Positions 6,175 through 26,641 of a stretch of 32,000 nucleotides of DNA are shown here, one piece after another; positions within the stretch are counted from its first letter, which is position 1, and each line of letters begins with the position of its first letter. Source of the stretch: Desulfotalea psychrophila LSv54 (GTDB lineage: Bacteria; Desulfobacterota; Desulfobulbia; Desulfobulbales; Desulfocapsaceae); assembly GCF_000025945.1 (NCBI RefSeq), contig NC_006138.1, forward strand, positions 1,560,001 through 1,592,000, given 5' to 3'. A program made the translations under genes and the position numbers. The notes under the pieces were generated by a model. It did no database searches and had not been told where the DNA came from. It saw only the letters and a program-made list of their open reading frames with translations.

Positions 6175-6250
6175 CAAAAAAGGGCCTTAAAAGCTCTGCC
6201 AGCTCTTAAGGCCCTTTCTGTTTTATGGTCGGAGTGAGAGACGAATCACT
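6175..6250 (-). repeat. Duplicated tRNA-Pro terminator hairpin plus 3'-end relic (copy 2)
   Basis: aaaaaagggccttaaaagctctgccagctcttaaggccc...tggtcggagtgagagacgaatcac parallels 26513-26590 (aaaaaagggccttaaaagctttatcagctcttaaggccc...tggtcggaatgagaggattcgaacc). Confidence 0.65.
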
Positions 6251-8042: not shown

Positions 8043-8152
8043 TCATGTAATTCATCAAGTGTGATAAGTTCAAAGCTTACATCATCCCACCAAATACTTA
8101 AAATAATGTAATTTGTCTTTTCCCGCCCCGTTCTCTGTGTACCTGTGACAAT

Positions 8153-8302
8153 ATAAGAAGTTGGCCGATAGTTCTTGGTGGACTTTTGGCTGCCCGCAGG
8201 TCTCTGTTTACAGAAGCCAAATCTCTTTTGAGTTGATGTTGTTTTTTTGATATCATCCGTAGTGGATGCAGGTCTGCGTTTGTCGGCCTTTGAGTCAGGC
8301 AA
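8153..8302 (-). repeat. ~150-nt noncoding-looking repeat, copy A (inverted relative to copy B at 24287-24427)
   Basis: The reverse complement shares long identical runs with copy B: gccgacaaa, cagacctgcatccacta, ggatgatatcaaaaaa, caacatcaactcaaa, tggcttctg, ctatcggccaac. The two copies differ by a 13-nt indel. Confidence 0.7.
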
Positions 8303-8416
8303 GGTTGGCAGGCACCTGGAAAAGGAGGTGAGCCATCCCCGTATAAGTGGCTTTAGTTACATCTTTATCTGATTGATTAAGCAAGGAATTTTTTGAATTT
8401 AAAAGGAGAAAAAATT

Positions 8417-8635
8417 ATGAGTACAGCCGGAAATGATATCGCTCAAATGAACGATCAGATAGCAAAGTATGGTTCCGTTACTCAGTTTGGTATTCGCATC
8501 TCAAGCATTACGGGTACAGCCGACGATCCGAATCAGAGTTCCGGCATCGCTTCCAAGACGGACAAAGGTCTTGGTGGCTATAATGGTAGTTGGGAGGTGG
8601 GCAACTGGGGGGATACCCTGAGATTTACTGTTTAG
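8417..8635 (+). CDS. Small hypothetical protein (72 aa)
   Basis: ATG at 8417 follows AAAGGAGAAAAAATT. Sequence: MSTAGNDIAQMNDQIAKYGSVTQFGIRISSITGTADDPNQSSGIASKTDKGLGGYNGSWEVGNWGDTLRFTV. No family recognised. Confidence 0.45.
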   Translation: MSTAGNDIAQMNDQIAKYGSVTQFGIRISSITGTADDPNQSSGIASKTDKGLGGYNGSWEVGNWGDTLRFTV

Positions 8636-8823
8636 GAGCAGTGACTCCAGAACGTTGGTTCGTTCAGGTCTCGGGTATCCGGCCCGAGGTCTGAATCGGA
8701 CTTAAAGGTAAAGGTGTCTGTCTATGATTTTTGTAATTCGGCCCAACCTCTCATTGGAGCCATTACTGTGAATTCTGTGGACACTTTACTTAATTATTTG
8801 TGGAATTCATCATGAAGAACATA

Positions 8824-8883
8824 ATCCAACATTGAACGCGGACGGGCGAAAAAGCCCGACATCCGGTTAATTCAGCGTTAATA
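8824..8883. other. attC-like imperfect palindrome (candidate recombination site)
   Basis: ATCCAAC-ATTGAACGC-GGACGGGC-gaaaaa-GCCCGAC..-GCGTTAAT-A. ATTGAACGC pairs with GCGTTAAT leaving one extra-helical G. The reverse strand ends in GTTGGAT, which fits GTTRRRY. Confidence 0.3.
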
Positions 8884-9157
8884 TTGTCAAATCGAAAGGC
8901 TTTGCTCAATGCTTCAAGTTGAAATTTATATTGTAGGTTACGGATCTCGAATCTAGTCTCTTGTAGGCTGTTTGTCGACGTTTTCAAGGCCTGCCTGGCA
9001 TTTATTTGAGCTGTTCAAAGGGGAGGATTAGTGATCGTCCGAGATCTGGGACAAATTTAACGATTTAGAGGTGAAGAACAACTGCATTATGGCTTATGGT
9101 GCAGGCCTGTATTGCTGGGCCTGTTAGGTGGAAAAGACCCAAAAGGGCGGAAGAGCA

Positions 9158-9601
9158 ATGAAAAAACAAATTATAGTTGTTCTGGTAAACTTATTATTAT
9201 TAACGGGGTGTGCGGGAACTATGTCTGAGCTGGGGATAAAAAATGGTGAGCTGACGCCGTGCCCGAAAACACCAAACTGTGTGAATAGTCAGGCGGTTGG
9301 AGAAAAACATTATATTCAACCTATCCGTTACGCAGGAACACGGCAGGAGATGCGAGTCCGTCTCTTGCAGATACTTGAGGCCGAAAAGCGAACAAATATT
9401 CTGACGGTTCAGGAGGATTATGTTCGAGTAGAATTTACGTCAGCATTGTTTCGATTTGTTGATGACGTGGAGTTTTATTTTCCGGAGGAGCAAAGCGGCG
9501 AGACGGTTATTTATGTTCGATCCGCTTCCCGGCTCGGATATTCTGATCTTGGTGCCAACCGGAAACGAATTGAGTGGATTCGAGGTGAATTTAATAAATA
9601 G
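9158..9601 (+). CDS. DUF1499 family lipoprotein
   Basis: Lipobox LLLLTGC and the hallmark PCPKTPNCVNSQ segment. ATG at 9158 follows GGAAGAG. Confidence 0.75.
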   Translation: MKKQIIVVLVNLLLLTGCAGTMSELGIKNGELTPCPKTPNCVNSQAVGEKHYIQPIRYAGTRQEMRVRLLQILEAEKRTNILTVQEDYVRVEFTSALFRFVDDVEFYFPEEQSGETVIYVRSASRLGYSDLGANRKRIEWIRGEFNK

Positions 9602-9741
9602 GTTTTAGACCTCTAGCGGCGTCGCTGAATAACGCTTGCCCAAGTTAGGTGCTTTCTTGCCGGTAACCCGGCAGCTCTTCACTGGTAGAGATGTTGCACT
9701 TATTATTTGAACTCAGCTTAGGGATTTTTAAAAGATATATC

Positions 9742-10284
9742 ATGAATAATTGGGATCAAGATAAATATCTAGAAGCGTGGAATTTTGCCTCTGCCATTCA
9801 TAATGGGCAAAAGATACCTGGAAGCGATATACCTTATATTAATCACCTTGGGCTCGTTGCAATGGAGGCGGTAGCAACTGTAGCCAATAAAAACATCCAA
9901 AATTCTAATATTCTTGTTTTGTGTGCGTTATTGCATGATTCTATTGAGGATACGGCAACGACCCATGAAGATATTAAAAAAATATTTGGCTCTGATATTG
10001 CTGATGGCGTTTTATCGCTCACTAAAAATAAAAAATTGCCTTCCAAGGTTGAACAAATGCTGGACAGTATTGCTAGAATAAAAACTCAACCTAAAGAGGT
10101 GTGGATGGTTAAGTTATGTGATCGAATCACGAATTTACAACCACCGCCAAGGCACTGGAACAAAGAAAAAATTGGCAAATATCAAAATGAAGCTCGCCTT
10201 ATATTAGAGAAATTAGGAGAGGCAAGCCAGTTTCTTGCAGAAAGATTAAAAATGAAAATTGATGCATATGACCAATATTTATAA
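9742..10284 (+). CDS. Stand-alone HD-domain protein of the RelA/SpoT hydrolase type (small alarmone hydrolase-like)
   Basis: PYINHLGLVAMEA...LLHDSIEDTATTHEDIKKIFGSDIADGVLSLT matches the (p)ppGpp hydrolase HD motif layout. About 180 aa, with no synthetase domain. Confidence 0.7.
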   Translation: MNNWDQDKYLEAWNFASAIHNGQKIPGSDIPYINHLGLVAMEAVATVANKNIQNSNILVLCALLHDSIEDTATTHEDIKKIFGSDIADGVLSLTKNKKLPSKVEQMLDSIARIKTQPKEVWMVKLCDRITNLQPPPRHWNKEKIGKYQNEARLILEKLGEASQFLAERLKMKIDAYDQYL

Positions 10285-10292
10285 AAATCATA

Positions 10293-10360
10293 GGCCCTGT
10301 TGCATAAATTATGAGGGAAAAAAATCAGCTCTTCTCTACTCCATCTCATCTGCTTATAGC
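10293..10360 (+). mobile_element. Partial MITE copy (one terminal repeat plus ~50 nt)
   Basis: ggccctgttgcataaattatgagggaaaaaaatcagctcttctctactccatc aligns with the left end of the full copy at 20623. I found no matching right end. Confidence 0.5.
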
Positions 10361-10807
10361 ACTCTTTGCTGTCCGCGGCACCATCGCCTGATATCTGTTT
10401 AATGCGACGACGAAGAGGGTTCAATAAGGGTCTCAAGGCCTTGGCATCACGAACTGACTTTATTGGAATTTCACTTAGGCGATTAGTTTCTGTATCAATA
10501 GCAAGGTGAAATTTGTGTCAAATTCTATGCCTTGCAGCTCCCTCTTCTTCATCTATCTTGCCCGTGCTTTCCGTCCTGCCCTATGATTATTAACTTCCCT
10601 TGGCCAGGCTGGTGAGACTTGAACTTGACTGCTTGAGCTCGATTGCATTGTCATGCTTCGTCCTCTCAATCCAGGTTGTTCAGTGTTGGACCAATTTTTG
10701 CTAACTATTCCAGTGAAATGTGGAGGGTGAGTCTGAATGATAGTTTCTGCAGAGAAAAGTATTGATTCTTTGTGTTTTTAAAATAATTTACATATAATTT
10801 TTTTATG

Positions 10808-10822
10808 AGTACTTAAAGTACT
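10808..10822. promoter_or_regulatory. Perfect 15-bp palindrome AGTACTT-A-AAGTACT upstream of the binding-protein/sensor operon
   Basis: Read directly, in an AT-rich region about 220 nt upstream of the ATG at 11045. A further AAGTAC half-site lies about 20 nt downstream. Confidence 0.25.
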
Positions 10823-11044
10823 ATAGCAAAAAGCCTAAAAGTACAGGGGATTTTTATGATTTCTTCAGGCGATTTTCAAACCAAAACAATTCGCTTATCC
10901 TTCCCTTTTGCTACCATGTCTCATCTACCCCTTCGCGCATCTTCATACCGTAGAGGCTTGTTGTGGGTATACAAATTATAAAATAATATGAGCTTTTAAA
11001 ATCATTGTCTATCCTTTTGCCTACGTTTTTAAGGAGAGCCCTTA

Positions 11045-12046
11045 ATGGAGCAGAACCGTAATCCTCTTGTCCATATCTACAGAGTAGCAACAGAGATATT
11101 TTTTATTGCCCTGCTCATCTGCTTCTCAGCAGCCCTATCCCTTGCTGCTAAACATGTCCGACTCGCATTGCAATGGTACCCGCAGGCACAATTTGCCGGC
11201 TATTACATGGCGCACGAAAAAGGAATATATGCCTCTCATGGTCTTGAGGTGGAAATACTTCCTGGCAGTGCAAATATGAATGGTTGTGAAAAAGTTCGCC
11301 TGGGAAAAGCAGAATTTGCTACAGCATTTTTATCTGATGCTTTGCAACTGCGCTCTCAAGGTGTACCTCTTGTTAATGTTGGTCAGTTTGTGCAGCGATC
11401 TGCGCTTATGCTGGTGGCCCGTAAGGATTCGGGGATAAAGACTATTCATGACCTTGATGGAGCCAGGATTGGCACCTGGGGTGAGGACTTTTGTCTGCAG
11501 CCTAAAGCCCTGTTCAAGCGTGAGGGGTTGAATGTGACACTTGTCAGGCAATCTCAGTCGTTTGAGCTGTTCATGCGCGGCGGCATCGATGTGGGTTTGG
11601 CTATGTGGTACAACGAGTATCATCGCTTGCTCTCCTATGGCTTGAATGAGGATGAGATGACCATCTTCTTTTTTAGCGATTTGGAGATGAATCTGCCAGA
11701 AGACGGAATTTACAGTCTGGAGTCTACCTTTAACGAATCTCCAGAGACTGCCCAAACGCTGGTGGAGGCGACTGCCGAAGGTTGGTTGTACGCCTTTGCT
11801 CACCCTGAAGAGACTGTCGACACCATGCTTCGCATCATGAAAGAGAGCAAGGTCAAGGCCAATAGAGCCCATCAAACATGGATGCTGGACCGCATGAAAG
11901 ATCTTCTCTTAGTCAAAGGGCAAAAGCAATTAAAGACGATACTGAAAGAGAGCGATTTCATTCGGACCCAAGAGGTGCTGCGCTTTCCAGGAGGCAAGCA
12001 GTCAGAGTTGATATACCAGGATTTCTACAAAGGAGACCTGCAATGA
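11045..12046 (+). CDS. NMT1/THI5-like (SsuA/TauA-type) substrate-binding protein, membrane-anchored
   Basis: N-terminal TM helix, then LQWYPQAQFAGYYMAHEKGIYASHGLEVEILPG, typical of this binding-protein fold. Its stop overlaps the next gene's start (ATGA). Confidence 0.75.
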   Translation: MEQNRNPLVHIYRVATEIFFIALLICFSAALSLAAKHVRLALQWYPQAQFAGYYMAHEKGIYASHGLEVEILPGSANMNGCEKVRLGKAEFATAFLSDALQLRSQGVPLVNVGQFVQRSALMLVARKDSGIKTIHDLDGARIGTWGEDFCLQPKALFKREGLNVTLVRQSQSFELFMRGGIDVGLAMWYNEYHRLLSYGLNEDEMTIFFFSDLEMNLPEDGIYSLESTFNESPETAQTLVEATAEGWLYAFAHPEETVDTMLRIMKESKVKANRAHQTWMLDRMKDLLLVKGQKQLKTILKESDFIRTQEVLRFPGGKQSELIYQDFYKGDLQ

Positions 12047-13977
12047 GAATAAACGGAATCGCCTTTCGGCTGGCGTCACTCACCCTGGCCTTTTCCACCC
12101 TGATTTTTGCCGTTATTATTGGCTATAATTATACAGTTTCACGTGGAATTATTGAAGATCTTGCTGAAGATCGGGGCACCCTTTTAGCCGCATCAACAGG
12201 TCAGCGAATAGCTGCAGTGCTGAACTCTATGGAAAAGGTTGCCGACTCTATTGCCTTTTCCCTTGAGGATGGCAACCTCAATGAAAAACGGCTCCAGGAA
12301 CTGGGGACGCAGGTCCTCATGAATAATCAGGAAATTTTTGGGACTGCCATAGCATTTGAACCCTACGGATTTGATCCGGAAAAGCTGTATTACGCCCCCT
12401 ACTCTTTTCGCTCACAGAACAAAATATCGTCCACCAACCTTGGCAGGCCGGGTTATCAGTATTTTTATATGGACTGGTATCAGTTGGCAAAAGAGTTGGA
12501 AAAATCGATTTGGACTGAACCCTACTTCGATACCGGAGGGGGGCATCAGCTTATGTCCACCTATTCCGTTCCCTTTTACCGTAAGGATGGAAAAGAAGAG
12601 GTGCTGGCGGGAGTGGTTACGGCTGATATCTCTCTTGACTGGATGCAGAAGCTGATAGCTGAGATCAATACAAATGAAACCGGCTATGTTTTTTTGCTTT
12701 CGCGCTACGGTACATACATTGCCCATCCCAATGCAAAGGTGGTGATGAACGAGACGATCTTCACCTCCGCTGAAAACCAGGGACAACCTCTTCTTCGTGA
12801 CATAGGGAGACGGATGGTTGCGGGCGAGTCTGGAGTTGAAGAACTGGCAGATTTACCTTTAACCGGGGACAGCTTTCTCTACTTTACCTCTTTACCTGAG
12901 CAAGAGTGGTCCATTGGGGTTGTTTTTCCAAAACAGGAGATGTTTGCCGGGGTAGCACGTTTGACCAAAGAGGTCGTCACCTTGGCTGTTCTTGGCTTTG
13001 TAGCTCTAGCCCTGCTCCTGATCTATCTTTCCTGTAAAATCACCCGTCCTCTTCGAAGTCTTACCGGCTCGGTAAATGACATTGCCTCTGGTAATTTGGA
13101 TGTAGATCTGCCTGCTGTTGTCGCCCAGGATGAGGTTGGCGAACTGACAGGATCAATTATAACCATGCGTGATTCCCTGAAACAATATATCGCTAACCTG
13201 ACGGAAACTACCGCGGTTAAAGAGCGCATCGAGTCTGAGCTTCGTATTGCCCATGATATTCAGATGTCTATTCTGCCTAAGCTCTTCCCGGCATTTCCCA
13301 ATAGATCTGAATTTGATATTTACGCAAGCATTGAGCCAGCAAGGGAGGTCGGTGGCGATCTCTATGATTTTTTCTTCATTGATGAGAATCGGTTCTGCTT
13401 TCTGGTGGGTGACGTCTCTGGTAAGGGCGTACCGGCTGCGTTCTACATGGCTGTCACCAAAACTCTGCTTAAGGTGGTCGCTGAAAGGGGGCTTAATCCG
13501 GGTGAAATACTGGCGAAGGTTAATAATGATCTGGCCGAAGATAACGATGCCTGTATGTTTGTCACCCTGTTTTTGGCGGTGATTGATATTGGTACTGGAG
13601 AGGTGCTTTATGCCAATGCAGGTCATAACCCGCCCCTCTTTATACCTAAGGGTGGAAAAGCAGAATGGATACCTCCATTAAACGAGCTGGTGGCAGGTGC
13701 AATGGAGGATTCTGTTTATACAACTAAATCTATGACCATGCAGCCCGGGGATACCCTCTTTATCTATACCGACGGGGTCACTGAAGCCATGGACAGTAAA
13801 CAGAGCCTCTATTCAGATGATCGTTTACTTACAGAAGTAGACCGCTGTAGCGGCCTTGCTGCGAAGCCGTTCATCCATGCCATCGATGACTCCATAAAAG
13901 CATTTACCGGTGGGGCCGAGCAATCGGACGATATAACCATGCTTGCCATGCAGTTTCTTGGCAAAAAGAATATTTAA
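12043..13977 (+). CDS. Sensor protein: Cache-HAMP-PP2C (SpoIIE/RsbU-type) serine phosphatase
   Basis: ATG at 12043 (MRINGIAFRLASLTLAF...). A periplasmic Cache-like segment (YYAPYSF...TEPYFDTGGGHQLMSTYSVPFY...GYVFLLSRYGTYIAHPN) is followed by a second TM helix, a HAMP region (RPLRSLTGSVNDIASGNLD), then AHDIQMSILP...GGDLYDFF...VGDVSGKGVPAAFYMA...GHNPP...TDGVTEA...DDITMLA. Confidence 0.85.
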   Translation: MRINGIAFRLASLTLAFSTLIFAVIIGYNYTVSRGIIEDLAEDRGTLLAASTGQRIAAVLNSMEKVADSIAFSLEDGNLNEKRLQELGTQVLMNNQEIFGTAIAFEPYGFDPEKLYYAPYSFRSQNKISSTNLGRPGYQYFYMDWYQLAKELEKSIWTEPYFDTGGGHQLMSTYSVPFYRKDGKEEVLAGVVTADISLDWMQKLIAEINTNETGYVFLLSRYGTYIAHPNAKVVMNETIFTSAENQGQPLLRDIGRRMVAGESGVEELADLPLTGDSFLYFTSLPEQEWSIGVVFPKQEMFAGVARLTKEVVTLAVLGFVALALLLIYLSCKITRPLRSLTGSVNDIASGNLDVDLPAVVAQDEVGELTGSIITMRDSLKQYIANLTETTAVKERIESELRIAHDIQMSILPKLFPAFPNRSEFDIYASIEPAREVGGDLYDFFFIDENRFCFLVGDVSGKGVPAAFYMAVTKTLLKVVAERGLNPGEILAKVNNDLAEDNDACMFVTLFLAVIDIGTGEVLYANAGHNPPLFIPKGGKAEWIPPLNELVAGAMEDSVYTTKSMTMQPGDTLFIYTDGVTEAMDSKQSLYSDDRLLTEVDRCSGLAAKPFIHAIDDSIKAFTGGAEQSDDITMLAMQFLGKKNI

Positions 13978-14001
13978 TAGAAGGATAACTGTTGGGCTCC
14001 C

Positions 14002-14160
14002 GATTGGTTGGCAAGCTTATGTAGTATGGGGAAGGGGAGAAGCATAGCCTCTCCCTGCGGGTGGTCTGCTCTGCTCATCAGGCAGTCGCGGCAGAAGCAG
14101 ATTACTCTGGAGGGGACGGGTATCGCGTCACAGGCGCGGCTTAGCGCGTCCTGCCCATGC
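14002..14160 (+). repeat. Dispersed repeat family R2, copy 1
   Basis: gattggttggcaagcttatgtag...ggcagaagcagattac is colinear with 23128-23292 (gattggttggcgaagattatgcag...ggcagaagaaacagattgttac). The spacing between the two anchors is 88 versus 90 nt. Confidence 0.4.
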
Positions 14161-15214
14161 CGCTGTTCGACAGGCTTTCCACTTCTTTAAAGAAAATCCG
14201 TTGCCGTTCGAGGAGTTCCAATGGTCTGTCCACAGGGGTCATGTGGGCGCTTCCCTCTATGATGTAATACTGAGGATTATTGGCAAATCCAGACTGCCAT
14301 TTTGTATAGGCTGGCGTACACAGATCGTCGCTTCCGCAAGTCATAAGAATAGGAACATTCAATTTGGACAGTTGCAAGGTTACGTCGATCGTTTTTAGCG
14401 TTCCCAGCACATTCAATTCCGAGCCGCTGGCAACCATAGTGTCGTGGATTGCGGCACTTCGTGCGGCAATCAATTTCTGCATTGCCTTAGGTAATGGCCA
14501 GGTGTGGGTAACATGCTTCTTACTGAACTCCAGGCAAGCTGCGTCGTAGTCGTTCTTTGTTCCTAAGCCCCTCAACTCATAATCATCTATCACCTGTCCG
14601 CCTTTTCCATTGAGGCAGCTCAAGCCCTGCTTAAGTGCCGGGGCAACATGAGTGCTGTAATAGGGAAAACTCAGTATTGGGCTATGGAGAGAAATGGACA
14701 ATATGCCGGTGGGGTGTTTGGCAGCAAATCCGACAGCCAGAGTGGTTCCCCATGAATGACCAATTAAATGGTACTTCTTCAAGCTCAGACCATCCCGAAT
14801 CGCTTTCACCTCAGCAAAATATCGTTCTGCAGTCCACAGGGACGGATTCTCCGGCCGCTCTGATTTTCCGCAGCCCAGTTGATCGTAGAAGATTACAGGG
14901 CGTTCATCACTCAATGCCTGAAACGCTACCAGATTATGATGATTTCCTCCGGGACCGCCGTGCAGAACCAAGGCTGGAGGGGCACTGCCGGAGCCAATTC
15001 TGCCGTACCATAATTTGTAGGTATGATCATTATAGGTGTAATCGATAAAACCTTCGCTATCATAAGCTGGTTCAGTTAAGATTTTGTCTATGAATGATTG
15101 CTCTTTATTCATGGTCTTTTCGTCTCGCGACATACAGCCGGTCATCATTACTATAATTAAGGTACAGAATACGCTCCAACATAACAAACATCTATGACTG
15201 ATTATGTATTTCAT
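14141..15214 (-). CDS. Prolyl aminopeptidase-type alpha/beta hydrolase (peptidase S33), probable lipoprotein
   Basis: LVLHGGPGGNHH, FYDQLGCGKSERP and the nucleophile elbow GHSWGTTLA. Lipobox-like IIVMMTGC. ATG at 15214 follows AGAGGG; the track start at 15232 is a TTG. Confidence 0.8.
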   Translation of the reverse strand: MKYIISHRCLLCWSVFCTLIIVMMTGCMSRDEKTMNKEQSFIDKILTEPAYDSEGFIDYTYNDHTYKLWYGRIGSGSAPPALVLHGGPGGNHHNLVAFQALSDERPVIFYDQLGCGKSERPENPSLWTAERYFAEVKAIRDGLSLKKYHLIGHSWGTTLAVGFAAKHPTGILSISLHSPILSFPYYSTHVAPALKQGLSCLNGKGGQVIDDYELRGLGTKNDYDAACLEFSKKHVTHTWPLPKAMQKLIAARSAAIHDTMVASGSELNVLGTLKTIDVTLQLSKLNVPILMTCGSDDLCTPAYTKWQSGFANNPQYYIIEGSAHMTPVDRPLELLERQRIFFKEVESLSNSGMGRTR

Positions 15215-15640
15215 AAGCCCTCTGTCAAACAAATTGTTATCCGGTTTTCTGATATCATCTCAAAACACAATTTGCCAAGGCAGCCATGATACCGGTTTTT
15301 TAACCGGATATCGCGACAGAACCTCTTGCTCTGGATGTGTCTTTCGCTGCCAGAAATTTCTCACTTCCCTCTTGTCGAATTCGCTCAAGATCCACTGATG
15401 AGGTCGTTAATATATAGTGCTTGTGAAACTTCACCTCAAAGTATTTGCTTATGTCATTATCACCATTTTATGGGCTTGGCTTTTTTCACTGTTTGCGAGA
15501 CAATTCTATAAAACAGTCACTCCTAGATTTTAGCGAAACAATAGACCTAAGGCAAGGATCAGTCATGAAAACCAGCACAGCCCATTACAGGCCAGCAAGA
15601 CTTTCTCGGCAAGCCATCAGTCACATTATAGATAGTGGCA

Positions 15641-15807
15641 GGCCTTGTTGCTTAAATAGAAGTTGTCAGCATTGCTCGATGATGTTTTCTTATAACATAG
15701 AGCATTGGAGGATGCAGGGGAGACAGCAGGAGAAAGATCGAAAACTGGCCGGAGTGGGGCAGAGAGAGGAGCTAGTTTTTTTCCCTCATGCTTTATGCAA
15801 TAAGGCC
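15641..15807 (-). mobile_element. MITE, short variant (167 bp), inverted relative to the copy at 20623
   Basis: Ends are ggccttgttgcttaaat (left) and, reverse-complemented, ggccttattgcataaag (right). An internal 36-nt run gatgatgttttcttataacatagagcattggaggat is identical to the reverse complement of the 20623 copy. Confidence 0.7.
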
Positions 15808-15950
15808 ACAAGGCCATCCAACCGACTCCGCAACCTTGCCCATTTTTTGCAAAAGAGATAGCAATAAATAGGGCCACCTTGCCCCTTCATCGCTAATTTT
15901 AGCCAACTTTGCCTCTTAATGAGGCCTTATTTTTCGGAGATCATCAATAA

Positions 15951-16515
15951 ATGGATATATCAGCAATAGCAAAATTTATAAAATCACCTACCTTGTATAT
16001 TTTTCTTACCTGTATCATTAGTGGCATGTTCTTGTTTTTAACTGAATCTTTTTTAACTGATTTAGAGCTTATTTCGTTTGAGAAGGATTATAAAAAATGG
16101 GTTACTGTTGTCTTTCTTTTCTCGTTAGGTTTTTTTGTTTTGAACCTACTGAATATGGCATATAAAAACTATCAAAAGAACTACCAGGAAAAAATTGTTG
16201 AAGCTGAAATTAATGAACATAAAAAAGATTCTCTAAAAAAATAGTCGTGATGCCAAAGCCTTAACGTCAACTTGGGATGATCGCGAAAAATCGATATTAA
16301 GAGAGTTTTTTGTTCAAGAAAAAAAGATGATTGAAATGTCAAATGACGACCCTGTAGCTCTTGGTCTTATAGATAAGCACATTATAAGCCAAGTTGGCAA
16401 AAACGATACTGATAATAATATAATTGGTTTGACCTGCTACTTTGAAATTACTGAAGAGGCGAAAGAACTTATTGAACAGTTTGGGCTTGATAAAACCAAT
16501 CAGGTAAACAACTAA
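15951..16515 (+). pseudogene. Superinfection-exclusion protein B (SieB)-like gene split by a frameshift in an A7 tract
   Basis: ORF1 (15951-16244) is a two-TM N-terminus followed by a Lys-rich helix. The +1 frame is open from 16237 and reads KNSRDAKALTSTWDDREKSILREFFVQEKKMIEMSNDDPVALGLIDKHIISQVG, as in SieB-like proteins. The junction is the A-run at 16235-16241, and removing one A joins the two frames. Confidence 0.55.
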
Positions 16516-16723
16516 ATTCAGGCTTCGCAAGATTTTGAGCAGCGGATCATGGCTAAGATGCTATAAAATTTTTGAAATAAATATAACAAGGCAAATTAAT
16601 TCGGATTGGTAAAAGGCGCGGTGTTTTTAAGCCCTCCATGGGCATTTGTCTTGGGGTGGCACGGGGATAGTGCTGCTTCACGGGCAAGCAGCACCAAGCA
16701 TCTCTCGCCACTCTATAACAAAG

Positions 16724-18040
16724 TTACCCCAACTCTTCTGGCAGAATCATATTGAGAATAATGGCAATAAGAGCCGCCGGAAGAATTCCCGAAGTAAGGA
16801 GGATTTTGGTGGTTCCAGGAAGATGTTGTAGCGCTTCCGGAACTGCCTGAAAACCAAGTCCTATGGAGAGAGCCAGGGCGAGGATAAGCATATTACGCTT
16901 ATTCCATACCACATCACTGAGCATATTAATGCCAGCGGAGATCACCATACCAAACATCACAATCACACTTCCGCCTAAAACAGCAATGGGCATCGCCGAA
17001 ATAACTGCTCCCACCTTTGGTACAAGTCCCGCCATAATCAGAAAAAGAGCGCCAATAGTTACAACGTGACGACTCATCACCCCGGTCATGGAGACAAGGC
17101 CAACATTTTGTGAAAAAGAGGTATTGGGAAGGGCGCCAAAAAAAGCACCTAAGGTTGTGCCAAGCCCATCGGCCATGGTTGCCCCGGCAATCTCTTTTTC
17201 GGTTGCTTCACGGCCAGCGCCACCCTGGGTTATCCCCGAGACATCGCCCACGGTTTCAATGGCGGAAACAAAAGCCATCAGTGACATGGCAAAGACACTG
17301 CTTAGGCTCAGTTCAAAACCAAAGTGCAGTGGAGTAGGCATTGCAAACCAGGCTGCGTTTTCGATATGGGAAAAGTTGACCATTCCCATGGATATTGCGA
17401 CAAGATAGCCTACGATAAGACCAATAAGAACCGAGGCGGTGGAGAGCATGCCCCGTCCAAAAAATTTTAGGATCAGGGTAACAAAAAGAACGGTAAGCGA
17501 GAGTCCCCAATGTTGCATGGAGCCAAACTCCTCGGTTCCCATAAGCGGTACGCCACCTGCTGCATACTGAATACCGATAGGAATTAATGAAAGACCAATG
17601 GTAAGCACCACAATTCCTGTTACCAGGGGCGGCAAAAAATTACGGATTCGGCCAATAACTGTGCCAAGGAAAAAGTGAAAAATGCCACTGAGCATAATGC
17701 TTCCGTAAAGAGCCGAAATTCCAGCAATTTTAACCAAAGGGATCATGATTGGCAGGAAGGCAAATGAAGTACCTTGGACAATGGGTAGGCGGGCGCCAAC
17801 AGGACCAAGTCCCACGGTTTGCAAGAGGGTGGCGATACCAGCAAAGGTCATAACCATCTGAATCATATAGACCATCTCAGGAGAACCAAAGGTGAATCCT
17901 GCGGCCAGGGAGATGATAATTGCCGGGGTGATATTTGAGATAAACATCGCCAGTACATGCTGGATGCCAAGGGGGATAGCCAGGTGAAGAGGTGGAAGAT
18001 AATTGGGATCTTTCAACTGCTCTTTCTTTGTAAAGCTCAT
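16724..18040 (-). CDS. Nucleobase:cation symporter-2 (NCS2) family permease (xanthine/uracil-type)
   Basis: Polytopic ORF with NCS2-like segments (LGIQHVLAMF, FGALPNTSFSQNVGLVSMTGV). I place the start at ATG 18040 (MSFTKKEQ...). The track's upstream extension looks non-coding. Confidence 0.85.
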   Translation of the reverse strand: MSFTKKEQLKDPNYLPPLHLAIPLGIQHVLAMFISNITPAIIISLAAGFTFGSPEMVYMIQMVMTFAGIATLLQTVGLGPVGARLPIVQGTSFAFLPIMIPLVKIAGISALYGSIMLSGIFHFFLGTVIGRIRNFLPPLVTGIVVLTIGLSLIPIGIQYAAGGVPLMGTEEFGSMQHWGLSLTVLFVTLILKFFGRGMLSTASVLIGLIVGYLVAISMGMVNFSHIENAAWFAMPTPLHFGFELSLSSVFAMSLMAFVSAIETVGDVSGITQGGAGREATEKEIAGATMADGLGTTLGAFFGALPNTSFSQNVGLVSMTGVMSRHVVTIGALFLIMAGLVPKVGAVISAMPIAVLGGSVIVMFGMVISAGINMLSDVVWNKRNMLILALALSIGLGFQAVPEALQHLPGTTKILLTSGILPAALIAIILNMILPEELG

Positions 18041-18298
18041 AGTGTCAACCTTAAAAAAGCGGGAACATATTCGAAAGCTGACAAAATAGCGACACAAATT
18101 ACAATAAAACCCCTTTTTAACGAACAAAGTGAGCTTTCTGGGGAGGAACAGCTTTTAGCAACTGCGGAAAAACGGTCGACGACTTATTTTTCAGCCAGCG
18201 TCTTTTGGCGAATTCATGACGGGGAAGGAAAATAGGCGAGGAGTGTTATCCATTAAGATGATTCCGTATTCCTATGCTCCCGGGCGGAAGTATTAGCT

Positions 18299-18330
18299 CA
18301 TAATAATTTCTGACGGACAAAATTATTATG
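18299..18330. promoter_or_regulatory. Perfect 11-bp inverted repeat CATAATAATTT-N10-AAATTATTATG upstream of the NCS2 permease
   Basis: Read directly, about 260 nt upstream of the permease start. It could be an operator or an RNA hairpin. Confidence 0.3.
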
Positions 18331-18420
18331 TATTGGAGGTGTTAGGTACTTGTAGGGATATTGAGTAAAATGTCTTCTTGTGTTGTTTTGCTGCTGCTCC
18401 GTAAAAGGAACCCTGGAGTG

Positions 18421-18469
18421 AAATAAGGGCTTAACAGTTGGGTAAAACTGTTAAGCCCTTATTTGTTTT
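18421..18469 (-). terminator. Strong hairpin terminator downstream of rhlE (potentially bidirectional)
   Basis: AAATAAGGGCTTAACAG-ttgggtaaa-CTGTTAAGCCCTTATTT, a 17-bp perfect stem with T-rich flanks. Confidence 0.65.
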
Positions 18470-18577
18470 GCAGAGTACTCACGTGATTGGACCTACCCCA
18501 AAGAAGGGGAGACACTCTCTTTCTGATAAATCCCCACCTGATAACTATTAAACGCCGTTAAAGCAGTGGTCTCTGGC

Positions 18578-19852
18578 TTAAAGATATTCTTTCCAGTGCT
18601 TGCGTTTTGTTTTTGCGGGTTTTCCTGCCTGCCCCTTAGATTTACCTTTACGCCGAGGTGGATCAGGTTCAAAATTACCATACTCCTCATCTTCATCTGA
18701 TAACACTACTGCTGGCTTCTTGCTCGGCGCAAAACCTTGGACGATATCACGTTCAAATTTACGGCCAATCAGCTTCTCAATAGAGGCGAGTTGCTGAGCT
18801 TCATCTTCACTGAAAAATGAAACCGCTAAGCCAGAGGTACCAGCACGGCCGGTACGACCAATGCGATGCACATAGTCTTCTGCTACATAGGGGAGATCAA
18901 AGTTAATCACGCACGGTAGTTGATGAACATCAATGCCCCGAGAGGCAATATCTGTTGCGACCAATACCACAACACTCCCGTTTTTAAAACCATCTAAGGC
19001 ACGTGTCCGTGCATATTGGGTTCTGTTGGCATGAATTGATTCGGCATTAATGCCAGCTTCTTTGAGCTGAGTAACTAAGGTGTCGGCTCCACGCTTGGTA
19101 CGACTAAAGACCAAAAGTTGCTGCCAATTGTACTTTTTAATTAGGTGAATCAATAATGCACTCTTTCGTTCCTGATCTACAGGATGCATTTTCTGCTTAA
19201 TGGAATCGACAATATTTTTATCGGTATCCACTTCAATCAAAACAGGATCATGTAGCATGCCCCCTGCAAGTGACTTGATCTCTTCTGAAAATGTAGCTGA
19301 GAACATCAAAGTTTGACGCTTGGCTGGAAGTAATGTTTGGATGTGACGGATATCGTCGATAAAGCCTAAATCCAACATACGATCTGCTTCATCGAGTACC
19401 AATATTTTAAGTGCGTCAAAGCTCACTGCCTGTTGATTATAAAGATCAAGCAAACGGCCAGGTGTTGCAACAAGCACATCTAGACCAGCCTGTAGTTTGG
19501 CTATCTGTGGCTCAATTCTTACTCCACCAAATGCTGCGCCAGTGCGAATATTCATCATGCTGCCATAGGTTTGAACACTTTCGGCAACTTGAGCTGCAAG
19601 CTCACGGGTTGGTGTAATAACAAGCGCACGTACTGTGCATGGCTGTGGACTATCGCCACCAGACAATAACTGTACCATAGGTAAGGTAAAGCCAGCCGTT
19701 TTTCCCGTGCCAGTGTGTGCCACCGCCATAACATCACGCTGATTCAGCACCACTGGAATAGCTTCCGTTTGTATCTGTGATGGAGTGGTGTATCCTTGCT
19801 CTGCGACGGTTTGCAAAAGTTCATCACACAAGCCTAAAATGGCAAATGACAT
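18578..19852 (-). CDS. rhlE: DEAD-box ATP-dependent RNA helicase
   Basis: Q-motif GYTTPSQIQ, AHTGTGKT, PTRELA, VLDEADRMLDLGF, SAT, HRIGRTGRAG, and a basic C-terminal tail. Confidence 0.9.
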   Translation of the reverse strand: MSFAILGLCDELLQTVAEQGYTTPSQIQTEAIPVVLNQRDVMAVAHTGTGKTAGFTLPMVQLLSGGDSPQPCTVRALVITPTRELAAQVAESVQTYGSMMNIRTGAAFGGVRIEPQIAKLQAGLDVLVATPGRLLDLYNQQAVSFDALKILVLDEADRMLDLGFIDDIRHIQTLLPAKRQTLMFSATFSEEIKSLAGGMLHDPVLIEVDTDKNIVDSIKQKMHPVDQERKSALLIHLIKKYNWQQLLVFSRTKRGADTLVTQLKEAGINAESIHANRTQYARTRALDGFKNGSVVVLVATDIASRGIDVHQLPCVINFDLPYVAEDYVHRIGRTGRAGTSGLAVSFFSEDEAQQLASIEKLIGRKFERDIVQGFAPSKKPAVVLSDEDEEYGNFEPDPPRRKGKSKGQAGKPAKTKRKHWKEYL

Positions 19853-19971
19853 GGGTATTCCTTGGATTGATTACTGTTTTCAGAGAGTACCATCCCACCC
19901 GGGAGCATGGGAATGAGTTGGGCATTAGGGGCGGGTGATACTCTGCATAGGTTCATGTTAGCACAAATCTC

Positions 19972-20052
19972 TTGGCAACCAGCGAAGCGCATCCCAAACA
20001 GCGCCTTGGTATGTGCGCTAATATTTATTATGAGTATCTGCTTGGTTGGCAA
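19972..20052. other. Weak attC-like element bounded by TTGGCAAC / GTTGGCAA
   Basis: cTTGGCAACCagcgaag...ctgcttgGTTGGCAACC. The flanks are partly self-complementary, and the element lies directly after the stop of the 140-aa ORF. Orientation is ambiguous because the core is near-palindromic. Confidence 0.25.
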
Positions 20053-20064
20053 CCTAAGGCTGGC

Positions 20065-20487
20065 CTATTCTGCTAAGAGCTTTTTAAGCAGCTCATCTAT
20101 TTCCCTTTGAAGTTCTTTATCTACAATTTTATTCGCACTAATTTTGGCTTCTTGGAGATTCTTGAGAGCTTCGTCAGTTCGACCTAATTCTACCTGTAAT
20201 GTAGCCATAGAGTATGCAATTGAAGACATATGGTCTTTTGAATTTATAGCGATTGCCTTCTCCAGGGCCTTTTCGTAGCCAGTTACGGCAACTTCCAAAT
20301 TTTCTGTAAAATCCGCAAGTGTTTCCCACTGTTCAGGGTGATCTTTGGCGGTATTTTCGTTATCGATGCAAATAGCCTTGAGTTCTGCATAGAGCCTATC
20401 AAATTCCTTTTCACTCTTTTGCTTAGACGCATGCATGAGCTTTTCAGACAGGGTATAGACGGCCTTATATATCTTGCTATTAATCAT
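20065..20487 (-). CDS. Hypothetical 140-aa all-helical (TPR-like) protein
   Basis: ORF only, in an AT-rich segment. The helical-repeat flavour (…AYSMATLQVELGRTDEALKNLQEAK…) is suggestive, with no firm family. Confidence 0.5.
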   Translation of the reverse strand: MINSKIYKAVYTLSEKLMHASKQKSEKEFDRLYAELKAICIDNENTAKDHPEQWETLADFTENLEVAVTGYEKALEKAIAINSKDHMSSIAYSMATLQVELGRTDEALKNLQEAKISANKIVDKELQREIDELLKKLLAE

Positions 20488-20622
20488 TACTCATTACCTT
20501 TTCTCTACAAAATGATTTTTTAGTGAGATGAAACAAAGTACATTATGCTGGAGGTGGACAGCAAGCGCAAGATATTAAAATTTGAAAAGTGGGTGAGCGG
20601 GAGCCGGTTTTCGATCCTACAC

Positions 20623-20905
20623 GGCCTTGTTGCATAAATCATGAGGGCAGAAAATCATCTTCCCTCCACTCCATTACATCTTAGCAAACAGTCTCTCGAA
20701 CAGGCATTCCAAAAGCGGTAATCTTGTTTAAAGCTTCAATCGCTTTTTTGTCCACCCAAAACGTTAACATCATTACTTCAGTGCCCTTATACTCCGACCA
20801 ATTTTTGATCTTTCCCCTGCTCTCTCCCCTGTATCCTCCAATGCTCTATGTTATAAGAAAACATCATCGAACAATGCTCGCAACTTCTATTTGTGCAACA
20901 AGGCC
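20623..20905 (+). mobile_element. MITE, long variant (283 bp) with 17-nt terminal inverted repeats
   Basis: The left end is ggccttgttgcataaat. The right end reverse-complemented is ggccttgttgcacaaat (16 of 17). It has no ORF of its own, and its right part overlaps the 3' end of ORF 20864-21322. Confidence 0.75.
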
Positions 20906-21322
20906 CCATGGGGTTAATAATTTTATTGTATTTATTGTGTATTTAGCACTTTTATTAAGTGCATTTATATCTCGTGTAACACAATTAATTAAACCCCACC
21001 CATCTTGGTGTTTCCAATAATTTGCTCCCGCATTTATTACTTTAATATACGAAAGCTCATCTGTTATTTTTTTGCCTAGCTTTAAAGCATCATCTTTTCT
21101 AACATCTAATTGAGGGTATGTGCTTGAAATATATCGTTGAATTAGTGAAAACCCTACACCGATAAAATATTCACCTTTGTCGCATAATCTATCTGAATCA
21201 GGATCAGCAGAAAGGCTTATTTCATTGTTAATAGCTTTAACTTTAAAATCAAGGTGTTCTAGCATTTCTGTAAGAAAATAGAAATCACTGTCAGCAAACT
21301 CTTTTCCAATTTTGAGATACAT
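20864..21322 (-). CDS. Hypothetical 152-aa protein; the last ~13 codons are supplied by the inserted MITE
   Basis: ATG at 21322 lies 31 nt after the attC-like core and is preceded by ACGGAG. The reading frame crosses into the MITE after ...LLTPWG. Contains ...INAGANYWKHQDGW... Confidence 0.55.
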   Translation of the reverse strand: MYLKIGKEFADSDFYFLTEMLEHLDFKVKAINNEISLSADPDSDRLCDKGEYFIGVGFSLIQRYISSTYPQLDVRKDDALKLGKKITDELSYIKVINAGANYWKHQDGWGLINCVTRDINALNKSAKYTINTIKLLTPWGLVAQIEVASIVR

Positions 21323-21353
21323 ATAACAGCTCCGTACACTGAACTATAGATAA

Positions 21354-21461
21354 GCCTAACGCTTCGTTAACTGGCGCATAGGTTGCTATTGTTTTTACTC
21401 TTTTTCTTTTGCAAAAACGATGACAGCCGTTTACGTGTCCGCGTTTAACGACTTGTTGTAT
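21354..21461 (-). other. attC-like site (minus-strand top strand)
   Basis: The minus strand reads (tg)ATACAAC-AAGTC-GTTAAAC...GTTAAC-GAAGC-GTTAGGC. That is an inverse core (6 of 7 to RYYYAAC) overlapping the stop codon, 5-nt spacers, L boxes pairing with one extra A, and a perfect GTTRRRY core. Confidence 0.55.
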
Positions 21462-22099
21462 CAATGGCTAATGATTTCAATTAGTATTTCTCCGTACTTA
21501 TTTTTTGTGTATATAACCCCACCTGAATCTTCTTCTCCAGCTACCCCACCATCAATGCCGCCGAAGCTTAAAAAACCTACTTTATAAAGCTCTCCAGCAG
21601 TAAGTTGGTCATTTGGACAACCATTTGAAAAATCAACGATGTACTTTAAATCACCATAAAATGAGCGCTCAATCATCAGGCATATACGAATAGTTTCATC
21701 ATAATTACATTGATTCATGAAAAGACGTTCAAATACTTTTGCGTACAATTCGAATTTCCTTGAATCATCAGCTTTTTCAATAAGAGATAATACAGTTTCT
21801 CCAAATCTTTCTCGTTGTTCAGCCTCAAGCATTTCCTCAGCAATAAACCGAAGCCGCGCCTCCTCATTAGTTTTATTTAGCTCAGATAGGAAACGGATAA
21901 GTTTTTTTACATACTGCCTTTCTTTTACCGCAATACCAGTCTTGAAAATAGCTATGGCAGAACCTACTATTGGAATGTCCTTTAAAAAACCATTTTCCAA
22001 TACGGAATCTACCGCTATCTCAGCTAGGTTAGTTCCAGTACCTTCAAGCTTTTGTCCCATAGTTTGGACTATCGATTCTTCTAATTTCAATTCACTCAT
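21461..22099 (-). CDS. Hypothetical 212-aa protein
   Basis: ATG at 22099 lies 32 nt after the preceding attC-like core. No family recognised (…FLKDIPIVGSAIAIFKTGIAVKERQYVKKLIRFLSEL…). Confidence 0.6.
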   Translation of the reverse strand: MSELKLEESIVQTMGQKLEGTGTNLAEIAVDSVLENGFLKDIPIVGSAIAIFKTGIAVKERQYVKKLIRFLSELNKTNEEARLRFIAEEMLEAEQRERFGETVLSLIEKADDSRKFELYAKVFERLFMNQCNYDETIRICLMIERSFYGDLKYIVDFSNGCPNDQLTAGELYKVGFLSFGGIDGGVAGEEDSGGVIYTKNKYGEILIEIISH

Positions 22100-22131
22100 A
22101 GTAACTCTAGATTTAAGTTATTCACTTATGG

Positions 22132-22198
22132 ATATAACGCTAAGTTGAGCGGCGCCGATTACGGCGTTCGAGTGCAGGGCGCGAACGCACTGTTAGCC
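22132..22198 (-). other. attC-like site (best example)
   Basis: The minus strand reads GGCTAAC-AGTGC-GTTCGCGCC...GGCGCCGCTCAAC-TTAGC-GTTATAT. From memory, this is the same box and spacer architecture as classical attC sites such as attC-aadA7 (GTCTAAC-AATTC-GTTCAAGC...GCTTAAC-TCAAGC-GTTAGAT). Confidence 0.6.
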
Positions 22199-22375
22199 TG
22201 CACTTAAAACTGGGCTTATTTCGCTCTCCCTAGTGGTTATTGACAGGCCAGCATCATCTTTCAGTTTGATAGGTTTAGTCGAATAGCACATTTACCATAT
22301 GCCTAACATTGATTGATATCGAAAAAAGACTTTTTATAACATATTGTTGGCCTAAAGATGCTGTTTTTTAGTTGA

Positions 22376-22445
22376 CCCAAACAGTAGGTTCGCGCCCTGG
22401 TTCGAGTGCTGCTTTCAGTCGAGCAGCTCGAACGACTGGTTAGAT
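22376..22445 (-). other. attC-like site with a degenerate 3' core
   Basis: The minus strand reads ATCTAAC-CAGTC-GTTCGAGCTGCT...AGCAGCACTCGAAC-CAGGGC..., then GTTTGGG. The inverse core is perfect and starts 4 nt after the stop at 22450. The R-prime side is irregular. Confidence 0.4.
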
Positions 22446-22449
22446 GTTT

Positions 22450-22958
22450 TTATAATTTATCTGGTTTTTTAATCATTTCTTTTTCATACTGTTGAATTAG
22501 ATTTTTATTTATACATTCTTGTACATTACGAGTAAGAGAATATAAGTTTTTTTCTGATCTAATAGGCAAATCTAAAGCAAATTTAGTTAAATGTACTGAC
22601 AGCGTTTTGTGATTTTTAGATTTTAATTGTAACGTTAGGTTAGATTTTTTTTTTCTAAATGACAAATTATTTCATACTGATGTTGTCTTTTTTGAAACTC
22701 TGGCTCTTCATTGGAGGAATTTTGCAAAACACTGTTAGATGCATGATAGTTTAATAAGACTTGATTGATTTGTATGAGCAATGCTTCATCTTGCTTTTTT
22801 TTATTAATTGACTCTTGATTTCTTTGGGCAAAAAACTTTCTCCCACAGCCAATAATGCACCCAGAATTATATATAGTAGTTCCATTTTTTACACCTAACA
22901 AGTTATTCTTCACTTTCCTGATATCATCCCAAATCACAATTTGATAATGCTTTTTCAT
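22450..22958 (-). pseudogene. Hypothetical gene split into 115-aa and 71-aa ORFs at an A10 tract
   Basis: The A-run (plus-strand T-run 22645-22654) sits exactly at the junction: ...ICHLEKKNLT-stop versus (TTG)SFRKKKSNLTLQLK... One extra A would give a single product of about 175-180 aa. I place the start at ATG 22958 (MKKHYQIV...). Confidence 0.45.
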
Positions 22959-23034
22959 CCATGATCCTGCCAGCCTTACCAATCAACTTACAGCACTCCA
23001 ACCTAAGCGCCCACGGCTACCCTCCTTACAAAGG

Positions 23035-23100
23035 GGTGTGCTAACAGTCTCCAACCACTGTCCTACACTATTACTTTTTTATGAGCAATAGTTAAGCACC
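23035..23100 (-). other. Weak attC-like element upstream of the first cassette-like ORF
   Basis: On the minus strand, GGTGCTTAAC...GTTAGCACACC are complementary ends, and GCTTAAC fits RYYYAAC. The inner arms are asymmetric. Confidence 0.25.
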
Positions 23101-23127
23101 TTTAGGTGTACGTGCGGGGTCCGCTAC

Positions 23128-23292
23128 GATTGGTTGGCGAAGATTATGCAGCAACATCGGGATAAAAATGAAAAAGAGAGGCACGGGTGTGGAATGGATG
23201 GGGCCATTGCCTATGCTGGCAGAAGAAACAGATTGTTACAAGGGTTGGGCTGCGATAAGGCCCGCAGCACCGGGCAATTGGGGCGCAGCGGA
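23128..23292 (+). repeat. Dispersed repeat family R2, copy 2
   Basis: See 14002-14160. Both copies have the same orientation and begin with gattggttggc. Confidence 0.4.
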
Positions 23293-23382
23293 AAGCTATC
23301 CACCCACTATATGCCATAAATCGGTTTTCTTCTTCAGCTTGAGTGCTGTTGTTATGCGCTTTTTAGAAGTCCAGTAAGGTTG

Positions 23383-24111
23383 TCATAGTTTCCACGGCCT
23401 AAACTTTTGATCAGCCCCAAATAGGAGTAAGCCGGACGTAAGATCATTACCAGACGGGATTTGGAGTCGTTTACTCAACGACCGAAGAACCTTATCGACA
23501 CGTTTAGGTGGTTCCAAAAGGAATGTTTTACCTTCTGGTGTGGTACATAAAGATGGACTCGTAAGACTATGGTACGCCCTGCATAAGACAGGTCGTTGCT
23601 CATATATCCTGCAGGTTCGATTGAAAAGTAGCGGACATGGCTTACCTTCTTGCGATAGCTTATAGTGAGCTTCATATATCACTGGATGGTCGCTTGGAAT
23701 AGTAGTTATTCCAGGTTCTAGAAGAGCCTGAACTGCTTTCTGAAATTCGGAAGCATACTCAACAAGAAGTTTGTGGATATCTTTGTAGTCCTCAAATTGT
23801 CGTATCCTACGATAGAGAGATATGATCTCAAATGAGTAAAGCCCTCGGACTGGCTGTTTACAGCATCGATCACAAGTTAAATGGCAGGCGATTTCAAGGT
23901 TTGCTTCGACGGTATTGTGGTAAATATAATTATCATAAATACTGTAAAACTCTTGAAGCAATTCGAAGAACTCGTCAGGCAACCAACCAGTTACTGCAAA
24001 ATTATCGATCTCATGAACAGTATTAAGTTTGTTTGCCGCGACCACCATGCAATCAGTAAGCTGACGAGATTCATCATCATTAAGGGTTGGTAATTTTATT
24101 GGTTCATGCAT
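23383..24111 (-). CDS. YkgJ-family Cys-cluster (CxxCxxCC-type) zinc/iron-chelating domain protein
   Basis: CHLTCDRCCKQPV, and a distal CPLLFNRTCRIYEQRPVLCRAY. ATG at 24111; the track start at 24123 is a TTG. Confidence 0.7.
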   Translation of the reverse strand: MHEPIKLPTLNDDESRQLTDCMVVAANKLNTVHEIDNFAVTGWLPDEFFELLQEFYSIYDNYIYHNTVEANLEIACHLTCDRCCKQPVRGLYSFEIISLYRRIRQFEDYKDIHKLLVEYASEFQKAVQALLEPGITTIPSDHPVIYEAHYKLSQEGKPCPLLFNRTCRIYEQRPVLCRAYHSLTSPSLCTTPEGKTFLLEPPKRVDKVLRSLSKRLQIPSGNDLTSGLLLFGADQKFRPWKL

Positions 24112-24286
24112 GTGTACCCCCAAAACTCCATTCGCATAAAAAAATATCGTCCAGAAACGGGATATCTTTCAGCCGAAGTCAACCTGACAAGGCGATTTCT
24201 ATCCTGATAATATGCTGTTAACCTGACGCCATTCAATAAAGAGCAATAACCGGACAATCTCCCGCATGAGCCAGATTTTTTTCTGG

Positions 24287-24427
24287 CCTTGCCTGACCCA
24301 ACCGCCGACAAATACAGACCTGCATCCACTATGGATGATATCAAAAAAGCAACATCAACTCAAAGAGGTCTGGCTTCTGCAAGCATACAGCCACACCCGC
24401 AGACAGGGCTATCGGCCAACATCTTAT
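24287..24427 (+). repeat. ~150-nt repeat, copy B (inverted partner of 8153-8302)
   Basis: See copy A. Weaker similarity continues about 100 nt further on the outer side of both copies. Confidence 0.7.
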
Positions 24428-24740
24428 CCTCTCATAGGGAATATTCAGAAGCGCACCTCTAATCAGGTAACAGGAAGACGATGCAGGTTGTCTTATACGG
24501 CAGGGATAGGGAGAAGGCGGCCAGCATGCTGATTAAAATAGTATCAGGGGCAAGCAGGGGACTGTGCTACAGGTAGGTATGTTCATATAGCACAGAATTC
24601 TACATATGGAGGGCACAGGGTGCCAAAAGAAAGTAGGGCGCTCACAGGACCTCTTAGCGGGTATTACGAGGCAAAAGGATGCCCCAACCATGAACATTCT
24701 GTTGAGGTGTTGCTGGTCGGAGTGCCACCAAGGGAAAGTA

Positions 24741-24847: not shown

Positions 24848-24984
24848 ATGGGGTGGGAGTGGGCTGTTTTTTGTGCATTTCCTGCACCCTCTGCACTTAA
24901 AACAAAAAAGGACCTACAGCAAAAACTGTAAGTGCTTGAAATCGTTTGTCGGAATGAGAGGATTTGAACTTTCGATCTGTTGTC
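24848..24984 (-). repeat. Diverged duplicate of the tRNA-Pro 3' half plus ~100 nt of its downstream flank
   Basis: atggggtgggagtgggctgttttttgtgca...ctctgcacttaaaacaaaaaagg...tgtcggaatgagaggatttgaactttcgatctgttgtc parallels 26448-26600 (gggtggggaggtgagaacgagtgttttttgtgcg...tggtcggaatgagaggattcgaacctccggccccttgtc). Confidence 0.6.
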
Positions 24985-26563: not shown

Positions 26564-26641
26564 TGGTCGGAATGAGAGGATTCGAACCTCCGGCCCCTTG
26601 TCCCCCAGACAAGTGCGCTAACCAGGCTGCGCTACATTCCG
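26564..26641 (-). tRNA. tRNA-Pro (anticodon GGG)
   Basis: The minus strand reads CGGAATG-TA-GCGC-AGCCTGGTTA-GCGC-A-CTTGT-CTGGGGG-ACAAG-GGGCC-GGAGG-TTCGAAT-CCTCT-CATTCCG-A-CCA. This is a full cloverleaf with a 7-nt anticodon loop (GGG at positions 34-36, G37) and an encoded CCA. Confidence 0.92.

Follow-up and report, generated by a model that had tools for sequence, protein, structure and literature searches.

What accounts for two similar noncoding sequences that lie 16 kb apart, in opposite orientations, in the chromosome of Desulfotalea psychrophila LSv54? The pair is located in a stretch of 32,000 nucleotides (contig NC_006138.1, forward-strand positions 1,560,001 to 1,592,000), called the window here, and all coordinates below are those of the window. 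A sequence-only reading of this DNA had offered three interpretations of the pair: a small family of structured RNA genes, the ends or relics of a mobile element, or substrates for inversion of the DNA between them. The two sequences are a real, noncoding and lineage-restricted inverted repeat in two copies, ordinary in kind. Most likely, each copy would serve as promoter and leader for the gene that adjoins it.

The repeat pair and its distribution

The following elements define the pair:

8142-8304 (+): copy A, whose sense orientation reads toward the neighbouring gene at 8417
24287-24438 (-): copy B, the reverse complement of copy A
8153-8171 (+): conserved upstream block ATAAGAAGTTGGCCGATAG, identical to 24427-24409 of copy B at 18 of 19 positions

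Local alignment of copy A with the reverse complement of 24287-24438 gave 127 identical positions in 149 ungapped columns (85%), and blastn within the window aligned 163 columns of the pair at E = 5e-31. The claim of an inverted repeat is thus well founded, and the identical runs first quoted for it are present, the longest being 17, 16, 15 and 12 nt; the longest perfect identity between the copies is therefore 17 bp. A repeat search of the window returned the core arms 8227-8304 / 24287-24364 (78 nt, 91% complementary) and the outer arms 8142-8192 / 24388-24438 (51 nt, 71%). Identity is patchy along the unit: 90% over 8152-8171, about 45% over 8172-8208, and 80-95% over 8209-8304, with a peak of 95% over 8229-8268. 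The stretch 8172-8208 is poorly alignable and rich in indels, and separates the upstream block from the core.

Copy B is 11 nt shorter than copy A in net length. This difference had been put down to a single 13-nt indel, which the best alignments replace with several gaps: one of 10 nt, one of 1 nt in the high-identity core (CTCTTTTGAG in one copy against CTCTTTGAG in the other), and two offsetting gaps of 3 nt (8172-8208). Weaker similarity had also been said to continue on the outer side of each copy. About 11 additional bases were indeed recovered there (8142-8152 / 24428-24438), and nothing farther out: neither blastn nor tblastx extended the similarity past 8142-8304 / 24287-24438 on either side. 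The homology stops abruptly at matching points in both copies.

No third copy of the unit was found within the 32-kb window by blastn or by an nhmmer profile built from A and B, and the same profile detected no further copy across 84 fetched loci. Exact core patterns of 25-26 nt were also searched. The pattern ACCTGCATCCACTANGGATGATATC had no match in the genome or metagenome contig collections, in which the inclusion of the rest of this chromosome is unconfirmed, and GATGATATCAAAAAANCAACATCAAC had none in metagenome contigs. A 17-mer matched viral contigs once; this match extends to just 19 nt and was rejected as chance. The unit gave no blastn match in plasmid and phage collections, of which the plasmid set should include the plasmids of this species. 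A literature search on this locus found nothing.

A promoter-like site at the same position in both copies

The core of the unit contains the following features, and a gene lies downstream of each copy:

8228-8256 (+): sigma-70-like promoter of copy A, with -35 TTGAGT, a 17-nt spacer and a TG-extended -10 TATCAT
24335-24363 (-): homologous promoter-like site of copy B, TTGAGT-17-TATCAT with TG; one spacer base differs from A
8248-8255 (copy A) and 24336-24343 (copy B): 8-bp palindrome TGATATCA, just upstream of CATCC-N5-GGATG
8254-8268: palindrome CATCC-GTAGT-GGATG of copy A, which overlaps the predicted transcription start and the final bases of the -10 hexamer
24323-24337: palindrome CATCC-N5-GGATG of copy B, whose loop differs from that of copy A at one base (A in place of G)
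8417-8635 (+): gene for a 72-amino-acid (72-aa) product, located 113 nt downstream of copy A and preceded by a good GGAG ribosome-binding site
23383-24123 (-): DP1418, a gene for a CxxCxxCC (PF03692) protein with its start at ATG 24111 or TTG 24123, about 165-175 nt downstream of copy B

A promoter scan placed the pattern TTGAGT-17-TGnTATCAT at the homologous position on the sense strand of both copies, within the best-conserved stretch of the unit; on the opposite strand of the unit the scan found no promoter-like site in either copy. Hexamers 16-18 nt apart with TG one base 5' of the -10, the extended -10 arrangement, occur in both copies, and such sites appear in shuffled sequences at a background rate of about 1 per kb for both strands combined. 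The predicted transcription starts fall at about 8262 (+) in copy A and about 24329 (-) in copy B. When A is read on the plus strand and B on the minus strand, each copy is directly observed to face a downstream gene on the same strand, and nothing resembling a terminator separates the predicted start from that gene in either copy.

The hairpin CATCC-N5-GGATG with its one changed loop base, pointed out in the sequence-only reading, is present in both copies. It extends over the predicted start and the final three bases of the -10, and the 8-bp palindrome covers the TG along with the hexamer. Such positions are typical of a repressor operator, which suggests such a role for the palindromes.

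The reading favoured here, to which we give a probability of about 40%, is that the pair represents a duplicated module of promoter, operator and leader. A noncoding module of about 160 bp would have been copied once, in inverted orientation, inside a horizontally assembled variable region beside tRNA-Pro, presumably through ectopic recombination or the acquisition of related DNA and not through transposition. Each copy would give its adjoining gene an inward-facing sigma-70 extended -10 promoter, would supply an operator-like palindrome (CATCC-N5-GGATG next to TGATATCA) over the -10 and the start, and would contribute roughly the first 40 nt of its long 5' leader. Copy A would serve the 72-aa gene at 8417, and copy B would serve DP1418 at 24111; both genes would then have the same promoter and would probably answer to one repressor-type control. 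The promoter is predicted to fire, and the palindrome to bind a regulator.

Several observations weigh against this reading. The promoter is a 9/12 match to the consensus, predicted from sequence, and its conservation partly reflects the roughly 90% identity of the core; no significance attaches to the fact that the seven core differences avoid the 14 key positions. Because the intergenic region that contains copy A is divergent, the orientation of this copy says little; the orientation of copy B is an event with a 50% chance. A second promoter-like site is located nearer to DP1418 (24236-24207), and the two genes have no evident functional link. Furthermore, a D. psychrophila hypothetical protein matches the 72-aa product at 100% identity, homologues of the product in metagenomes stand at 66-81%, and the unit is not found upstream of the homologous genes in other organisms (loci L082-L084). 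The unit is thus not the ancestral regulatory region of this gene family. No homologue of DP1418 exceeds 47% identity, a distance too great for their upstream regions to be informative.

A more elaborate form of this idea was also considered, in which a species-specific cassette of promoter, operator and short structured leader or small RNA would put two unrelated acquired genes under one control, or in which the leader would be a new structured RNA with two paralogues. This is rather improbable, and nothing suggests a new kind of system.

Other explanations of the pair

The main rival, possible though doubtful, treats the unit as a non-autonomous mobile element or the remains of one, now without function. 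Copying as a unit would explain why the homology ends sharply at the same points in both copies, and such coinciding boundaries would be hard to obtain from the independent decay of larger elements. Other small repeats are present in this tRNA-linked, mosaic region, namely a miniature inverted-repeat transposable element (MITE) at 22175-22399 and a 167-nt family with 11-bp terminal inverted repeats. However, no terminal inverted repeats common to the two copies mark the limits of the homology; the sole inverted repeat near the unit ends is the 6-bp GGCCGA/TCGGCC, which lies inside the unit. No direct repeat of 4 bp or more flanks copy A or copy B as a target duplication. The window has no transposase gene, Pfam having assigned metabolic, signalling and unknown proteins, and no transposase, to the main open reading frames (ORFs; at least 97 aa) of 8.4-24.1 kb. 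Two copies only are present in 32 kb, and the exact core patterns are unmatched in the genome and metagenome collections. Lacking terminal inverted repeats, target duplications and a transposase, the earlier proposal of mobile-element ends gained no positive support.

The Correia elements of Neisseria, present in hundreds of copies, are bounded by terminal inverted repeats and a TA target duplication. Like them, the unit is noncoding, falls within about 100-170 bp and is located upstream of genes, with promoter-like hexamers that could drive the neighbouring gene; unlike them, it has neither terminal inverted repeats nor a TA duplication, and is known in two copies. The unit resembles MITEs in being short, noncoding, repeated and placed in a variable region linked to a tRNA. 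A textbook MITE of 225 bp occupies 22175-22399: its terminal inverted repeats match perfectly over 12 bp (CAGGGCGCGAAC / GTTCGCGCCCTG) and imperfectly up to 35 nt, the 9-bp target duplication GTTCGAGTG adjoins it on both sides (window 22166-22408), and its insertion site seems to have been a hairpin in low-GC intergenic DNA. The A/B unit, in contrast, shows neither kind of end.

An RNA explanation is unlikely, whether the copies are taken as two paralogous small structured RNA genes or as a structured leader RNA that acts in cis, in either case restricted to this species. On the sense strand, the RNAalifold consensus contains 44 pairs, of which 0 are broken and 11 carry a pairing-preserving change, two of these being compensatory. 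Substitutions in the 3' part sit in loops or preserve pairs (helices 8266-8279 and 8280-8302), the column-shuffle z-score of the two-sequence alignment is -2.3, and the unit carries its own promoter-like site. This pairing and covariation, however, was equalled by 131 of 500 shuffles, in a comparison of two sequences that has no statistical power in either direction, and both compensatory pairs are located in a 2-bp helix of the unalignable stretch. The antisense strand gives the same column-shuffle z, and single sequences fold with z-scores of just -0.7 to -1.9 relative to dinucleotide shuffles, whichever strand or copy is taken. Since the structural signal is weak and equal on both strands, DNA palindromes fit it better than a strand-specific RNA.

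The organization of the unit also argues against an RNA gene. Neither copy is followed by a terminator, the two downstream sequences bear no relation to each other, and transcription from the predicted start would cut through the middle of the CATCC/GGATG hairpin. A comparison with Rfam, proposed along with the RNA interpretation, was carried out: across the whole window only tRNA-Pro passes the gathering threshold, and at E <= 10 the two units produced just chance-level matches to eukaryotic small nucleolar RNAs (snoRNAs) and long noncoding RNAs (lncRNAs), none of them relevant. Taken with the folding scores and the shuffles, these results lend no positive support to a structured RNA family. 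One noncoding repeated element of D. psychrophila has been published, the Desulfotalea-1 RNA motif (Weinberg et al. 2010, PMC2864571); the members examined are short hairpins, and many instances lie near rRNA operons (PMC2864571). The present unit is likewise a noncoding repeated element of this species. It is unrelated to the motif, two published members of which found no blastn match in either unit.

A protein-coding origin can also be set aside. Matching-frame short ORFs do span both copies (for example MPDSKADKRRPASTTDDIKK... and MPDPTADKYRPASTMDDIKK...), and decayed gene fragments, or pseudogene remnants, would account for them. Coding is nevertheless excluded because the 1-nt indel in the core disrupts every reading frame, the 10 core substitutions are spread 4/3/3 across the three codon positions, nearly all substitutions in the three candidate ORF frames checked change the amino acid (one is synonymous), and the concatenated six-frame translation of both copies matched no protein at E <= 10 among 5.8 billion. 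Pfam also gave no match. The description of the pair as apparently noncoding thus stands, and a pseudogene origin is very improbable. Two other short ORFs begin at the predicted transcription starts: 8266-8331 (+), MQVCVCRPLSQAR..., of 21 codons, and 24325-24233 (-), MQVCICRRLGQAR..., of 30 codons. Neither has a ribosome-binding site, and their substitutions are mixed. They are probably meaningless, and could be a leaderless micro-ORF.

Equally hard to credit is that the copies are crossover sites that invert the intervening 16 kb, either in a programmed manner or by homologous recombination: the geometry fits, with inverted repeats around a segment in which the genes at either end face inward, but no invertase or tyrosine recombinase gene was found in the window (Pfam on the main ORFs; PADLOC and NCBIfam on ORFs lacking clear annotation), the GC skew tracks the coding strand without an inversion signature, and 16 kb is far above the size of known programmed invertible segments. 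In E. coli, RecA-dependent exchange needs roughly 23-27 bp of identity, so that a longest identity of 17 bp counts against homologous exchange. Switches of the Hin/Gin/fimS type comprise 0.3-5 kb, with short and precise crossover sites and an adjacent recombinase gene. The pair resembles them in that inverted repeats flank a segment and a promoter is near the repeat; it differs in its 16-kb segment, in repeats that are 85% identical, and in the absent recombinase. With no recombinase gene and so short an identity, the suggestion of inversion substrates received no positive support.

The variable region beside tRNA-Pro

Both copies of the repeat are located inside a stretch of about 5.4-26.5 kb. 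PheS/PheT and tRNA-Pro(GGG) are syntenic with relatives, and the synteny ends at the tRNA. Partial copies of this tRNA occur on both sides of the pair:

26564-26641 (-): tRNA-Pro(GGG)
5395-5409: partial tRNA-Pro copy, 3' end at 5395
6176-6244: partial tRNA-Pro copy, 3' end at 6226
24714-24728: partial tRNA-Pro copy, 3' end at 24714
24873-24984: partial tRNA-Pro copy, 3' end at 24946

The four partial 3' ends are in direct orientation. Two of the copies bring downstream sequence that includes a terminator hairpin, which is present in the 6226 copy. Such copies suggest that DNA was inserted at the tRNA several times in succession; the window contains no integrase gene. The break in synteny and the partial tRNA 3' ends make the 5.4-26.5 kb stretch look like serially assembled foreign DNA, and the homologues of DP1418, at 47% identity or less, add to the mosaic character of the surroundings. 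Because synteny with six relatives ends at tRNA-Pro, the ancestral state of the region cannot be reconstructed.

Genes with a defence flavour are scattered in the region. They include an Mrr-type endonuclease gene beside the tRNA (25047-26168, -), an aspartyl protease that matches the PADLOC candidate PDC-M08B (5447-5923, -) and a SieB-like small membrane protein (15951-16244, +). A nuclease remnant had been reported next to copy A; the ORF concerned (8042-7761, minus strand) has no sequence match in Pfam, NCBIfam or PDB, even at E <= 10. Its stretch DGDTITV...KIRL resembles, by eye, the start of staphylococcal-type nucleases. Between 20000 and 23000, the GC content is 35-37%, compared with 45% overall, and three ORFs (152, 212 and 115 aa) are unmatched in Pfam, NCBIfam and PADLOC; this segment is probably recently acquired DNA.

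The 167-nt noncoding family mentioned above is bounded by the 11-bp inverted repeats GGCCTTRTTGC ... GCAACAAGGCC, and no target duplication was seen at its copies:

15641-15807 (-): copy of the 167-nt family
20623-20905 (+): copy with an internal insertion of about 110 nt
10293-10351 (+): partial copy

A further repeat, called D4, is a 54-nt direct repeat at 15228-15281 / 22897-22950 that consists of a minus-strand similarity at the protein level (QIV.WDDIRK..NNL). Its 15.2-kb copy lies just upstream of the start of an alpha/beta hydrolase gene, with an in-frame TGA where the other copy reads TGG; this may mean that an N-terminal extension of the hydrolase has been lost, or else that the 115-aa ORF is a paralogue fragment. 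A regulatory site common to D4 and the A/B unit, based on TGATATCATCC, was considered and rejected, since a similarity of this protein-level kind makes the shared 11 nt coincidental. Elsewhere in the window, a DUF134 DNA-binding protein (4558-5334) carries a long tail of degenerate GQG/GLGQG repeats at its C terminus, and the DNA that codes for them shows a 6/18-nt periodicity (4977-5252).

The value of these results is mainly negative, in that the pair proves to be neither a relic of coding sequence nor a recognised RNA family, and neither the end of a transposon nor a credible switch for inversion; it has little significance beyond the genome of D. psychrophila. If the promoter reading is true, the pair would provide a small example of a regulatory module that was copied so that two acquired genes share one promoter.

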